The translations under genes were made by a program, and so were the position numbers. This document shows, in pieces, positions 11,875-17,129 of a stretch of DNA of 64,000 nt. Where the stretch lies: sequence record PX104380.1. The stretch is one strand, 5' to 3'. The notes below the pieces were generated by a model, which saw only the letters and a list, made by a program, of their open reading frames with translations, was not told where the DNA came from and did not search any database. The DNA comes from a phage. Every line of letters starts with the position of its first letter. Within the stretch, counting starts at the first letter, position 1.

Positions 11875-12879
11875 TTAGCTCACCAACTCAATCCAAGCCG
11901 GACGAAGTACATCTTGTACCATTTTAACTAATTCCTTTTTAACCAAAGAAGGATTATCCGCTTGAGTTAGAGTAATACCTTCACGAGAAGTTTCTTCCAA
12001 AATATCTTGAACAGTTAATCCCATTACCTTTCCAAAATCTTTTGGACCAATTTCGCCAATTTTGGAAATAACGTTATTTACTCGGTTCAATGTAACATAA
12101 CAAGCTAAAATTCCAACCAATTTATTATCAGCTTCTGACAATTCAACTTTAGCTTTAATAGGCTTATCAGACTTTTTCTTTTCACTAAATTTAGAATTCT
12201 TGCATTTGATGGCTACACGATTTCCATTATGAAGCCAAGAAGGATAACAAGGTTTCAATACATATCCTTCAGCGGTAAATACTTCGCCTTTTGCTTCAGC
12301 TTTCCAAACGCATTTATTTGCATCAACTAATCCAGCGTGGTCTACTGTAAAATTATAATTTTGGACGACAGAATCTAAATCATTTGGCAATTTAATAAGC
12401 TCTTCAAATTTACCGCGACCTAAAAGTGGAGCCATTTTAAATTTAAATGTATTACAGAATGATTCCATCATATAATCATCGACATAAGTCACATCACCAC
12501 TTTCTGTAGTGACAATAATGTCAAATACATAAAAATCTTTATCACCATAATCAACATTCTTCTGAATGCCAGGTCCAGCGAATTCGCCAAAGACTTGATA
12601 AGATACAACCGCTGAAGTTTCCATAATTTCTTGTACTGCTTTAATGGAATCAGCGTAATTCTTTAGAATAATTTCATACCCAAAGAAATCTTCAGCAGGA
12701 AGAATAGGACCAGTGCGTTTAGCGCAAGTTACTTTATCACGCTCAATAATCAATGAGAAATTTGTGCCGTGAATCTTTTCACGAGCTACCCATTCGCCGC
12801 CAGTCAATCCCAAGCTATAAAGTTTTTCAATAAATTTAGAGTTGTAATGATTTTCAAGACTGCTATACTTTTTAAACAT
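11875..12879 (-). CDS. rnlB: RNA ligase 2
   Basis: 334 aa; nucleotidyltransferase motif I KIHGTN; ATG with SD GAGGA. Confidence 0.9.
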
Positions 12880-12888
12880 AATTAATCC

Positions 12889-13167
12889 TCAAAATGTAAT
12901 TTCTAACCAATCACCATCACGCTGATCACTATTGACTTTAAAATTAAATCCTTCTTTTCTCAGCCAATCACCAATTTCTTCAGTAATCAATTTATCACGA
13001 GCAGTACAATAATAACTAAAATATGTTTTACCTTGTTCAGCTGCTTTATTAGCAAGTTCCGAAAAATCTTTAATAAAACACTCTAGTTTAAACTGTTTGC
13101 TTTTAAGTGCTTTTTCGCGTAATTGATTAGCAAAAGATTCATTTTCATAAAGATCATACTGTTCCAT
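12889..13167 (-). CDS. 24.2: hypothetical protein (T4 24.2 position)
   Basis: 92-aa ORF with ATG and SD; position downstream of rnlB as in T4. Confidence 0.6.
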   Translation of the reverse strand: MEQYDLYENESFANQLREKALKSKQFKLECFIKDFSELANKAAEQGKTYFSYYCTARDKLITEEIGDWLRKEGFNFKVNSDQRDGDWLEITF

Positions 13168-13369
13168 TTTTCACCTTTTTATTAATATGTCTTTTTCTAT
13201 AGACAACTTTTTCTCGAGTTTCAAATTTATTCTTAGCAGTCATAGCTCGAGCCCATAATACAGCCACTTCTTTTGCCTGTAAGTTCAATTCACGAGCAAT
13301 TTCAATGAATGACTTTCCAGACTCATGAAGAGTAAACACCACAACCTCAGTTCTCATAATCAATCTCAT
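13154..13369 (-). CDS. 24.3: hypothetical protein (T4 24.3 position)
   Basis: 71-aa ORF; start ATG 13369 or M5 uncertain. Confidence 0.55.
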   Translation of the reverse strand: MRLIMRTEVVVFTLHESGKSFIEIARELNLQAKEVAVLWARAMTAKNKFETREKVVYRKRHINKKVKNGTV

Positions 13370-13458: not shown

Positions 13459-14877
13459 TTATGGATAGGTATAGATGATACCAGTTTCTAAAGCAGTTTT
13501 ATGAATGATGTATCCATTACGCGATTCTTGAACATCAACTTCTGGATAATCTTTCATCATCTTCTGAAGAGTGTAACGATGCAGGTAGTACTTACTATCT
13601 GGGTCGTCAGTTTTCCAATCTTTACCTTCTTCAGTCATTTTTTGGATTTCATCCATAACCCACCAACCGCACCAGATGTAAGCTGAAGTACGGTGTGGAA
13701 GAGGATGAACATAAGGCAATTCACCTTCTGGTTCCGGAGCAACTTTATCAGTCACTTGAACTTGACCTGTTGTTTTAACTGTTTTGCTATCATAATCAGT
13801 TGCTGTAACGACAGCAGTAACTTCAATAGTTTGACTTCCAACAGATGAGGTATCGACAGTATATACGTTAGTTGACCCTTCTACAGGAGAAGAATCTTTC
13901 TTCCACGAGTAAGTAATTTGTGCTTCTTCTGGAGCATCCGTAACATTAGCCGTAAATGTAGCTGAAGCATCTTGCTGAACGTTAATAGAAGGAGGAGTCA
14001 ATGTAACCTGTGGATTCATTGTCTTCTTATTAACTGTCAATGATACTTCATTAGAAGTAACTTCCTTTTCATTGTAATTTTCTGCTGTTACTTGGGCTAC
14101 GCATTTAATTCTTTTTACTCCACTTGTAGTTGGAGTATAGCTAAATGTAGAGTTAGTTTCTCCACCAACTTGAGAATCATCTACATACCATTGATACGTA
14201 GCAGACGCTCCATCAGGTTGAGAAGCTAAGGCAGCAGTAAATTGAACTAGGGTTCCAATTACTCCAGCTGAAGGACTATCGGGAGTTACTGCCAAAGTAG
14301 TTGTCTGTGTCTTTTTATTAACAGTCAGTGACACTTCATTAGAAGTAACTTCTTTTGCATCATAATCTGTCGCGGTTACTTGAGCTACACACTTAATTGT
14401 TTTAACTCCACTTGTGTCAGGAGTGTAATTGAATGTAGCAGAAGTCGCTTCGTCTACAGGAGAACCATCAACGTACCATTGATACGTAGCAGATGCACCT
14501 GATGGCTGCGAAGCTAAAGCAGCGGTAAATTTAACAGCTGTTCCAATTACTCCTGCTGGAGGACTATTGGGAGTTACGGCTAAGGTAGTCGTCTGTGTCT
14601 TATTTTTAACTGTGATAGTTGTTGTCGCTTCAGCCGTTTCCGGGCCTCCTTCAGAAAGTGTATTTGTTGCAACAACTTTAATAGTCTTTTGACCAGCAGG
14701 ACCTTTTAATACATAATCAAAAGTTGCTTCAGACCCATCTTGTGGAGCATTATCTACACTCCAAGCATAAGTAATAGTTCCACCTCCAGTTTCACCACTA
14801 GGTGCAGCAGTAAACTGCTTGGTTTCATCAATAACTCCTGACGGTGTTTTAGGAGTTATATCAACTGTAAAAGCCAT
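13459..14877 (-). CDS. hoc: head outer capsid protein Hoc (472 aa, four Ig-like repeats)
   Basis: Ig-like repeats with QWYVD and KCVAQVTA motifs; position between 24.3 and inh; longer than the 376 aa I recall for T4 Hoc. Confidence 0.9.
   Translation of the reverse strand: MAFTVDITPKTPSGVIDETKQFTAAPSGETGGGTITYAWSVDNAPQDGSEATFDYVLKGPAGQKTIKVVATNTLSEGGPETAEATTTITVKNKTQTTTLAVTPNSPPAGVIGTAVKFTAALASQPSGASATYQWYVDGSPVDEATSATFNYTPDTSGVKTIKCVAQVTATDYDAKEVTSNEVSLTVNKKTQTTTLAVTPDSPSAGVIGTLVQFTAALASQPDGASATYQWYVDDSQVGGETNSTFSYTPTTSGVKRIKCVAQVTAENYNEKEVTSNEVSLTVNKKTMNPQVTLTPPSINVQQDASATFTANVTDAPEEAQITYSWKKDSSPVEGSTNVYTVDTSSVGSQTIEVTAVVTATDYDSKTVKTTGQVQVTDKVAPEPEGELPYVHPLPHRTSAYIWCGWWVMDEIQKMTEEGKDWKTDDPDSKYYLHRYTLQKMMKDYPEVDVQESRNGYIIHKTALETGIIYTYP
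14026..14601 (-). repeat. tandem direct repeat, 2 x 288 bp, inside hoc (duplicated Ig-like domain)
   Basis: aa 93-188 and 189-284 of Hoc are nearly identical; both begin KTQTTTLAVTP and end EVTSNEVSLTVNK. Confidence 0.85.
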
Positions 14878-14886
14878 AAGTTATCC

Positions 14887-15567
14887 TTATTTTAATGTTA
14901 CGAAAGAAGAATTGCGTGTTTCACGAATTAAAACTGATCCGTCGCGATTAATGTAATAAATTAAGCTAAACAGAGTTTGGTGTGCTGACGCGTGTTCAAA
15001 ACTAGTTGGATGAGATTTCCAATCAGGAGTTTCAGCGATCCATTGATAAATCCACCAAGGAACCGTACAGAATCCTGGATTTTTCCCCAATAATTGAAGA
15101 TTCGGGCTAAAGTTTTCCGGAAGAGTAAATACAGACGGCTTTTCAGATTCAATAATCTCAGCTACAGCTTGTTCAAACTTTTCTTCAACAAAAGGAGTGT
15201 CTTCAATCAAAACATCAGTATTTTCAGGAATTTTATCCGTTTCTACCACTTCAATTTTAATATCAGATTTAACTGGAGAATCAATCAGAAGTGCTGCTTC
15301 TGGATTGACTTCTTCATCGTCATATTTTAATCCCTCTGCAGCATCAGCAGCATCAATTAAGTCTTTAATAGATAACCCATCAGTCTCTGGCATAGGTTCA
15401 CTAGCGAGCTTCTGGAGGGCTTCTTCAATATCAACAACGATATTATCAAAAGATTTATTCTTTTTGACCTTTATACCAAACTGTTCAGCATATTCAGCTA
15501 ATTTAGCTTTAGCTTCTTTATTATCATCAAGAGCCTTCAGCTCTGCAATATAATCTTTATCTATCAT
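14887..15567 (-). CDS. inh: inhibitor of prohead protease Inh
   Basis: 226-aa ORF, ATG with SD GAGGA; T4 size and position. Confidence 0.8.
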   Translation of the reverse strand: MIDKDYIAELKALDDNKEAKAKLAEYAEQFGIKVKKNKSFDNIVVDIEEALQKLASEPMPETDGLSIKDLIDAADAAEGLKYDDEEVNPEAALLIDSPVKSDIKIEVVETDKIPENTDVLIEDTPFVEEKFEQAVAEIIESEKPSVFTLPENFSPNLQLLGKNPGFCTVPWWIYQWIAETPDWKSHPTSFEHASAHQTLFSLIYYINRDGSVLIRETRNSSFVTLK

Positions 15568-15580
15568 AATATTTCCTCAG

Positions 15581-15588
15581 TATAAATA
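15581..15588 (+). promoter_or_regulatory. late promoter TATAAATA for uvsW
   Basis: exact TATAAATA 29 nt upstream of ATG 15618. Confidence 0.5.
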
Positions 15589-15617
15589 TAGATATATTTA
15601 TTACATGGTATTTAGAC

Positions 15618-17129
15618 ATGACTGACATTAAAGTACATTTTTATGATTTTAGTCACGTGAGAATTGATTGTGAAGAAAGTACATTTCATGAACTCCGTGA
15701 TTTCTTTAGCTTTGAGGCCGATGGATATAGATTTAACCCTCGCTTCAGATATGGCAACTGGGATGGACGAATCCGTCTTTTAGATTATAATCGCCTTCTT
15801 CCATTCGGCTTAGTCGGGCAAATTAAAAAGTTCTGTGATAACTTTGGCTATAAAGTCTGGATTGACCCACAAATTAACGAAAAAGAAGAATTATCAAGAA
15901 AAGATTTTGATGAATGGCTTTCTAAATTAGAAATCTATTCAGGAAATAAAAGAATTGAACCACACTGGTATCAAAAAGATGCAGTGTTCGAAGGATTAGT
16001 TAATCGTCGTAGAATTCTTAATCTTCCAACATCTGCAGGTAAATCTTTAATTCAAGCTTTGCTTGCGCGATATTATTTGGAAAATTATGAAGGTAAAATT
16101 CTTATCATTGTTCCAACAACTGCTCTTACAACTCAGATGGCTGATGACTTTGTTGACTATCGTTTATTCAGTCATGCAATGATAAAGAAAATTGGTGGCG
16201 GAGCATCAAAAGATGATAAATATAAAAATGATGCACCAGTCGTTGTTGGTACATGGCAAACTGTAGTAAAACAACCAAAAGAATGGTTCTCACAGTTTGG
16301 AATGATGATGAATGATGAATGCCATTTAGCAACAGGAAAAAGTATTTCATCTATCATATCAAGTTTAAATAACTGCATGTTCAAATTCGGTTTGTCCGGT
16401 TCATTACGTGATGGCAAAGCCAATATCATGCAGTATGTTGGAATGTTTGGCGAAATATTTAAGCCAGTAACGACTTCTAAATTAATGGAAGATGGGCAAG
16501 TAACTGAGCTAAAAATTAATAGTATTTTTCTTCGTTATCCTGATGAGTTCACTACTAAATTAAAGGGAAAAACTTACCAAGAAGAAATAAAAATTATTAC
16601 TGGGCTCAGTAAAAGAAATAAATGGATCGCTAAATTAGCCATTAAGCTTGCGCAAAAAGATGAAAACGCTTTTGTTATGTTTAAACATGTATCGCACGGT
16701 AAAGCTATTTTCGATTTAATTAAAAATGAATACGATAAAGTTTATTACGTATCAGGGGAAGTTGATACCGAAACCCGCAATGTAATGAAAACTTTAGCTG
16801 AAAATGGTAAAGGAATAATTATAGTAGCTAGTTATGGTGTATTTTCTACTGGTATTTCAGTTAAAAATCTGCATCACGTTGTTTTAGCACACGGTGTTAA
16901 ATCAAAAATCATTGTATTACAAACAATCGGTCGTGTATTACGTAAGCATGGTTCTAAAACAATCGCAACGGTCTGGGACCTCATAGATGACGCGGGCGTA
17001 GTTTCTAAATCAAAAACATCTTCTAAAAAATACTCGCATTTAAACTATCTTTTAAAACATGGACTTGATCGTATTCAGCGTTATGCTGATGAGAAGTTTA
17101 ATTATGTGATGAAAGAGGTTAAACTTTGA
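15618..17129 (+). CDS. uvsW: UvsW helicase
   Basis: 503 aa; Walker A TSAGKS and DExH-like NDECH. Confidence 0.95.
   Translation: MTDIKVHFYDFSHVRIDCEESTFHELRDFFSFEADGYRFNPRFRYGNWDGRIRLLDYNRLLPFGLVGQIKKFCDNFGYKVWIDPQINEKEELSRKDFDEWLSKLEIYSGNKRIEPHWYQKDAVFEGLVNRRRILNLPTSAGKSLIQALLARYYLENYEGKILIIVPTTALTTQMADDFVDYRLFSHAMIKKIGGGASKDDKYKNDAPVVVGTWQTVVKQPKEWFSQFGMMMNDECHLATGKSISSIISSLNNCMFKFGLSGSLRDGKANIMQYVGMFGEIFKPVTTSKLMEDGQVTELKINSIFLRYPDEFTTKLKGKTYQEEIKIITGLSKRNKWIAKLAIKLAQKDENAFVMFKHVSHGKAIFDLIKNEYDKVYYVSGEVDTETRNVMKTLAENGKGIIIVASYGVFSTGISVKNLHHVVLAHGVKSKIIVLQTIGRVLRKHGSKTIATVWDLIDDAGVVSKSKTSSKKYSHLNYLLKHGLDRIQRYADEKFNYVMKEVKL

Follow-up and report, generated by a model that had tools for sequence, protein, structure and literature searches.

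The hoc gene of the phage in sequence record PX104380.1 is very probably a standard long Tequatrovirus allele, in which domain 2 is present as two in-frame units that split from one another long ago and whose product works like the Hoc of T4. The window is the whole stretch of PX104380.1 that was analysed (64,000 nt, one strand), and all hoc coordinates refer to it.

Gene identity and gene order

The hoc gene (highly immunogenic outer capsid protein, long form) is on the minus strand at 13459..14877 and consists of a 472-aa ORF and a stop codon. Upstream of hoc is inh (hoc.1), a 226-aa ORF at 14887..15567 on the minus strand, which is annotated at the same place in KMB42, KMB39 and Ec_O157kw. 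The window ORF uvsW, at 15618..17129, is divergent from inh. Downstream of hoc is a small 24.3-like gene at 13154..13369 on the minus strand, a 71-aa ORF with a syntenic CDS of 204-216 nt in KMB42 and KNP5. Two small genes separate hoc from rnlB, a window ORF at 11875..12879. This gene order matches the T4-type order rnlB, 24.2, 24.3, hoc, inh, (segE), uvsW, as annotated in T4, KMB42, Ec_O157kw and KMB39. In the T6 record, the product names are shifted: rnlB appears as 'baseplate wedge subunit' and a segE-sized CDS as 'tail tape measure protein'. The strand opposite the repeat contains no ORF of at least 60 aa, and thus nothing there points to a second feature.

A 24-kb stretch of the window is approximately 96-97.6% identical to Tequatrovirus genomes, including KMB39, PST, T6 and Ec_O157kw, and the sequence identifies the window phage as a Tequatrovirus (a T4-like phage of Enterobacteria). 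Over its full length, the window hoc is 97.7% identical to the hoc of KMB42 and 92.3% identical to that of RB30.

An earlier note on this DNA named the gene hoc, and this assignment is supported by the gene order, the match to T4 Hoc and the capsid-contact residues. The window Hoc matches the T4 Hoc chains in PDB entries 5vf3 and 8t1x with E=6e-228 (phmmer), and in the best stretch residues 189-472 are aligned to T4 residues 93-376. The residues of T4 Hoc that contact the capsid have been named (PMC10385173). All of them (Y293, H295, R300, W309, W310, D313 and the E355-S-R-N-G359 loop) are kept in the window Hoc at the T4 position plus 96. The features that mark a protein as Hoc, namely these C-terminal contact residues, an N-terminal Ig-like string and the T4-type gene order, are all found for the window protein.

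Domain organization

Ig-like domain 1 (residues 1-92) is encoded at 14602..14877 on the minus strand, as are all the domains that follow. It has a weak match at residues 1-91 to an HMM built from the two domain-2 units, and in the AlphaFold2 (AF2) model it is an all-beta module with block pLDDT of 79-93. Domain-2 unit 1 (residues 93-188; 14314..14601) is the first copy of a 288-nt repeat. It is recovered by the repeat searches and by the unit HMM, and its predicted strands run from 98-102 through 182-187. Domain-2 unit 2 (residues 189-284; 14026..14313) is the second copy, found by the same searches, and contains the best Pfam PKD stretch (195-267). It is the copy nearer to T4 domain 2, with 89.9% nucleotide identity versus 79.2% for unit 1. 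Ig-like domain 3 (residues 285-378; 13744..14025) has Pfam Ig_3 and I-set matches at 289-356, a weak unit-HMM match at 285-378 and a beta module in the AF2 model. The capsid-binding domain at the C terminus (residues 379-472), together with the stop codon, is at 13459..13743; it keeps the T4 capsid-contact residues and is nearly invariant in the alignment.

The count of four Ig-like modules plus a capsid-binding domain, against three plus one in T4, was proposed from the sequence and is borne out by the unit HMM, Pfam, the AF2 model and the contact residues. The unit HMM finds modules at residues 1-91, 93-188, 189-284 and 285-378. The Pfam PKD family (PF00801) scores 36.5 bits over two stretches, above the gathering cutoff of 23.5, which places the protein in that family; Ig_3, Ig_2 and I-set score just under their gathering thresholds. 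The AF2 model, with a mean pLDDT of 84, consists of four all-beta modules followed by an alpha/beta C-terminal domain, the latter weakly modelled (pLDDT 40-69). Each of the seven strands in unit 1 has a counterpart in unit 2 exactly 96 residues further on. When the model is compared with the PDB using Foldseek, the best matches are tandem beta-sandwich strings: the four-Ig strings of Dscam1 and Sidekick-2, ICAM-5 D1-D4 and a bacterial tandem-domain adhesin.

Register and divergence of the two units

The repeat search returns a direct repeat of two 288-nt copies at 14020-14307 and 14308-14595, and TRF reports a period of 288 with 2.1 copies at 14020-14610. The tandem repeat that had been described at 14026-14601 is the same repeat with its register shifted by 6 nt, and in this register it corresponds exactly to residues 93-284. 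The best protein register pairs residues 93-188 with 189-284, with 77 of 96 residues (80%) identical. At the nucleotide level, the units are identical at 225 of 288 positions (78.1%), at an offset of exactly 288 nt and with zero indels. Shuffled sequences (200 shuffles) average 87 identical positions and never exceed 106. The longest identical run between the units is 20 nt. With these values and a dS of 0.92, the copies are not the nearly identical sequences that the earlier note described.

Of the 63 nucleotide differences between the units, 12 fall at first, 13 at second and 38 at third codon positions. The dN between units is 0.126, and dN/dS is approximately 0.14. The substitution pattern indicates that both units are kept under purifying selection. 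The residue differences lie mostly outside the predicted strands (16 of 19; Fisher p=0.0017). In the model, the two units have a common scaffold, and most of their differences are in loop residues.

Distribution of the long form

A total of 663 phage records match the window hoc. The best 21 of these 663 matches (93.5-97.7% identity) are all gap-free 1419-nt genes. Among 50 full-length matches drawn at regular intervals from the ranked list, 18 have the ~1419-nt gene (~36%, a frequency that rests on these 50 rows) and the other 32 a gene of ~1131 nt (1117-1132 nt). The long hoc is present in RB27, RB30 and PP01, and the short hoc in T4, T2, T6 and RB51. The hoc of T6 (AP018814.1, L029:2204-3335) is annotated as two overlapping CDSs, and that of UFV05-UFV11 as several pieces. 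A frameshift could lie behind these split annotations, as could an error in sequencing or a genuine pseudogene.

At the protein level, the best 120 Hoc clusters include 78 of 376 aa, 29 of 472 aa and 7 of 568 aa, and the Tequatrovirus length series as a whole is 283, 376, 472 and 568 aa. Strong unit matches number one in 376-aa proteins, two in 472-aa proteins and three in 568-aa proteins. Some long-form Hoc proteins (P0014, P0019, P0006 and others) are filed under bacterial names, such as 'endonuclease [Shigella sonnei]' and 'PKD domain-containing protein [Escherichia coli]'. These mislabelled proteins are on contigs of 130-166 kb, which points to T4-like phage genomes inside bacterial assemblies.

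The hoc record of RB30 (GenBank AY101183; protein AAM52483) contains a repeat_region annotation for a 578-nt intragenic repeat, which it credits with an extra immunoglobulin-like domain. Hoc homologues have a variable number of Ig-like domains, up to ten (PMC10385173). In the literature searched, there was no paper on the RB30-type repeat, but only the GenBank annotation and general statements of this kind (PMC10385173). The same form is common in close relatives and is annotated in RB30, so the feature is already known. According to the earlier note, its reading would be refuted if the four-domain Hoc were the usual form in the closest relatives; the relatives show this to be so, as all 21 of the closest alleles and ~36% of the even sample are long. 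The window hoc is an ordinary long allele, real and widespread, and its discovery value is small: the extra Ig-like domain has been in GenBank since 2002 and variable Ig-like number is described in the structural literature.

Recombination and origin of the long form

Single-unit hoc genes can be modelled as the window gene with one unit's length removed. The hoc of Ec_O157kw (PV857777.1, L004:1501-2631; 376 aa) corresponds to the window hoc minus an in-register 288 nt at unit offset 184-197. This deletion model leaves 33 mismatches in 1131 positions versus 50 or 76 for removal of a whole unit. Where the window units differ (63 sites), the single unit of Ec_O157kw is unit-1-like in its 5' part and then switches to unit-2-like in its 3' part. 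Among the matches listed, Ec_O157kw also has the highest identity (97.6%) to the 24-kb neighbourhood in the window. The L010 single unit is unit-1-like, and the L010 gene is best reproduced by taking unit 2 out of the window gene; for the hoc genes of T4 and L008, the best model takes out most of unit 1. Among 81 single units, approximately 23 contain the unit-1-type loop motif P..EA..A and approximately 58 the unit-2-type motif. At the protein level, single units combine unit-1-type and unit-2-type segments in mosaic fashion.

Across these sequences, domain-2 copy number (one, two or three) is a circulating polymorphism of the genus. Most likely, this variation would be created and reassorted when units recombine, homologously or unequally, in mixed infections. 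The expectation that the repeat is recombination-prone holds only weakly. At 78% identity and with runs of no more than 20 nt, the repeat is a poor substrate, but the mosaic units show that exchange has occurred over evolutionary time. The mosaics would be equally compatible with in-register deletion from a two-unit gene, with allelic recombination of single-copy types and with an unequal crossover that built the long form.

The two unit types may instead have diverged as single-copy alleles that were later joined by one or more unequal crossovers in a mixed infection, an origin that is possible but the less probable one. Under such an origin, the divergence of the copies would predate the duplication and would say nothing of its age; the anatomy and function of the present gene would be the same as in the standard long allele described above. 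Single-copy Hocs do carry either unit type (L010 versus T4 and L008; ~23 versus ~58 of the 81), mosaic patterns are common, and the 2.1 copies reported by TRF reflect a resemblance between the domain 1/2 junction and the domain 2/3 junction, a site where misaligned pairing could take place. However, an ancestral two-unit gene that repeatedly lost one unit, the other unit or an in-register combination of the two, as in the chimera of Ec_O157kw, fits these patterns equally well. The long form is also not young, since orthologous unit 1 sequences differ between long alleles by a dS of 0.13-0.22, similar to the rest of the gene.

Homing by SegE co-converts flanking sequence and could therefore move hoc alleles. 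The spacer between inh and uvsW in the window (15568-15617) is only 50 nt, so the window phage is without the homing endonuclease gene segE. This gene is located between inh and uvsW in T4, KMB39 and EP01, and probably in T6, where it is mislabelled. A link between the presence of segE and hoc length was considered. KMB39 contains segE and a long hoc, T4 and EP01 contain segE and a short hoc, and the window phage and KMB42 have a long hoc and no segE; in the few loci checked, there is no simple association. RB30 is reported to be without segE and to have a SegE cleavage site in the inh-uvsW spacer (PMC2330249).

Age of the duplication

In the standard long allele, the split between the two units is old relative to the present diversity of the genus. 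Domain 1, domain 3 and the C-terminal domain of the window hoc have a dS of about 0.18-0.26 against T4 and about 0.05-0.18 against Ec_O157kw (for the parts of the gene outside the units, a range of 0.15-0.27 against these two phages is also given), and orthologous hoc segments compared between phages have a dS of 0.03-0.43. Inside RB30 and inside KMB42, unit 1 and unit 2 are as diverged as in the window, with a dS of ~1.1. Between the window and RB30, unit 1 is 88.9% identical to unit 1 and unit 2 is 93.4% identical to unit 2 at the nucleotide level, whereas unit 1 and unit 2 are 76-78% identical within each phage. From phage to phage, each unit differs from its positional counterpart no more than the remainder of the gene does.

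The same pattern is found in the proteins. In 31 two-unit proteins, mean identity by position across phages is 0.89 for unit 1 and 0.86 for unit 2, versus 0.80 between the units of one protein; unit 1 of the window is orthologous to unit 1 of the other long Hocs at this mean identity of 0.89. Within a protein, the two units are identical at 71-82 of 96 residues in 30 of the 31 proteins, with one outlier at 54 of 96. Judged by these distances, the split between the unit types is several times deeper than the divergence of hoc between the window and T4 and than the present hoc diversity of the genus.

The earlier note read the repeat as a recent duplication in this phage lineage, that is, as a fresh, little-diverged and unstable domain-2 copy. 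In its favour, the two copies keep exact register (288 nt, no indels) and match each other at either end of the protein unit. This reading is nevertheless highly improbable. The units differ at 63 of 288 nucleotides, and their dS is several times the ~0.2 of orthologous segments between T4 and the window, which excludes a recent duplication. This same diverged pair is found at the same positions in RB30, KMB42, L007 and approximately 30 protein clusters, and the 1419-nt form is widespread.

That one domain-2 unit was expanded to two in the assembly is scarcely credible: tandem repeats are prone to mis-assembly and Shigella phage KNP5 (NC_055713.1, L005:1733-2722) has a gap of 990 Ns inside hoc at the same region, but the window copies differ at 22% of positions with runs of no more than 20 nt and could not be collapsed or expanded by an assembler, the reading frame is intact, and the same 1419-nt gene is present in many independent genome records and in the stand-alone RB30 hoc record. 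The artefact is thus very unlikely for the window hoc, as judged from copy divergence and independent records rather than from reads. The gap in KNP5 spans from near the end of domain 1 to a point a few residues inside a domain-2 unit, and only a 588-nt 'Hoc-like' CDS is annotated there. It shows that the hoc repeat region can break an assembly.

Function of the long Hoc

T4-type Hoc is present as one monomer at the centre of each gp23 hexamer and is dispensable for growth. Hoc serves as a display platform and is implicated in the adherence of phage to mucus. The T4 Hoc fibre is made up of four domains and is ~180 A long. In T4, Hoc is anchored by its C-terminal domain to the centre of the gp23 hexamer, and its Ig-like modules extend away from the capsid (PMC10385173). 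From the near-identity of its C-terminal domain with that of T4, the window Hoc would likewise dock as one monomer at the centre of each gp23 hexamer, with the Ig-like modules projecting as a fibre, and would be dispensable for growth. This five-domain fibre should be roughly 40-45 A longer than that of T4. Users of this phage should expect a longer fibre of this kind with two non-identical domain-2 modules.

The long Hoc would present two sequence-distinct domain-2 surfaces that differ in their loops. In the PNJ-9 Hoc, residues S183, L184 and T185 of domain 2 are reported to bind the fucose of MUC2 (PMC11853027). The S-L-T tripeptide is present in both window units (residues 183-185 and 279-281), and it varies little or not at all in any of the unit classes examined. 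The presence of two domain-2 units may have consequences for adhesion.

It is conceivable, though rather doubtful, that the polymorphism in unit number is actively maintained and recombination-driven, tuning fibre reach and the number of S-L-T surfaces to mucosal or bacterial-surface niches. If so, the concentration of unit differences in loops would reflect a diversifying use of the copies, and the duplication of domain 3 in Klebsiella phages, described below, would be a convergent response to the same selective pressure.

Comparison with other Hoc proteins

An example of a very long homologue is that of Serratia phage Muldoon, which has 1174 aa and 10 Ig-like domains before the capsid-binding domain at its C terminus (PMC10385173). 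It is likened to the window Hoc through its published description, and differs in its many more modules and its distant sequence.

The Hoc of Klebsiella phage Marfa (MN044033.1, L012:1001-2416) is similar in length to the window Hoc (471 aa) and also contains a tandem duplication of an Ig-like module, the copies being identical at 75 of 94 residues (~80%). However, the duplicated module is of the domain-3 type and has 94 aa (residues 186-279 and 280-373), and the protein is ~49% identical to the window Hoc. The type of module makes it an independent event in another lineage, so duplication of Hoc modules is recurrent. Long (~1358-nt match) and short (~1076-nt) hoc genes coexist in the Klebsiella T4-like phages (Marfa, L011). 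The IMG/VR scan, which returned 21 loci with few from Tequatrovirus, is useful mainly for this parallel.

Within Tequatrovirus, the shortest form is the Hoc of EP01 (OM135583.1, L006:1501-2352; 852 nt, 283 aa), which consists of domain 1, one domain-2 unit and the C-terminal domain. This form differs by the absence of domain 3 and not by domain-2 copy number, and its domain boundaries match those of the PNJ-9 'variant Hoc' (PMC11853027). The 568-aa Hoc of UGKSEcP1 and UGKSEcP2 has the same modules as the window Hoc but three domain-2 units. In the 568-570-aa proteins (P0001-P0008, for example those of Escherichia phages UGKSEcP1/2), the three tandem units are identical at 70-81 of 96 residues in pairwise comparison. 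The 283/376/472/568-aa series, together with the chimeric single units, would serve as a natural data set on the evolution of capsid-fibre module number through recombination.

T4 Hoc (376 aa; 5vf3, 8t1x and 8t9r; Fokine et al. 2023, PMC10385173) belongs to the same family and is located at the same gene position, and its capsid-contact residues are identical to those of the window Hoc. Nucleotide identity between the two genes is 89-97% in domain 1, domain 3 and the C-terminal domain. Unlike the window Hoc, T4 Hoc contains just one domain-2 unit, which is largely unit-2-like but has patches resembling unit 1, and thus has three Ig-like modules rather than four.

The RB30 Hoc, which is shared in form by RB27, PP01, KMB42 and many other Tequatrovirus phages, is the same as the window Hoc in organization: 1419 nt and 472 aa, gap-free, with two diverged domain-2 units at the same positions. 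In the RB30 record, the register of the repeat lies approximately 61 nt further on, and the C-terminal domain is taken to be an Ig-like region too, the fifth. The window gene has the two tandem 288-nt units of the RB30-type long allele, each orthologous to the unit at the same position elsewhere, and it differs from the RB30 gene only by allelic differences in sequence.
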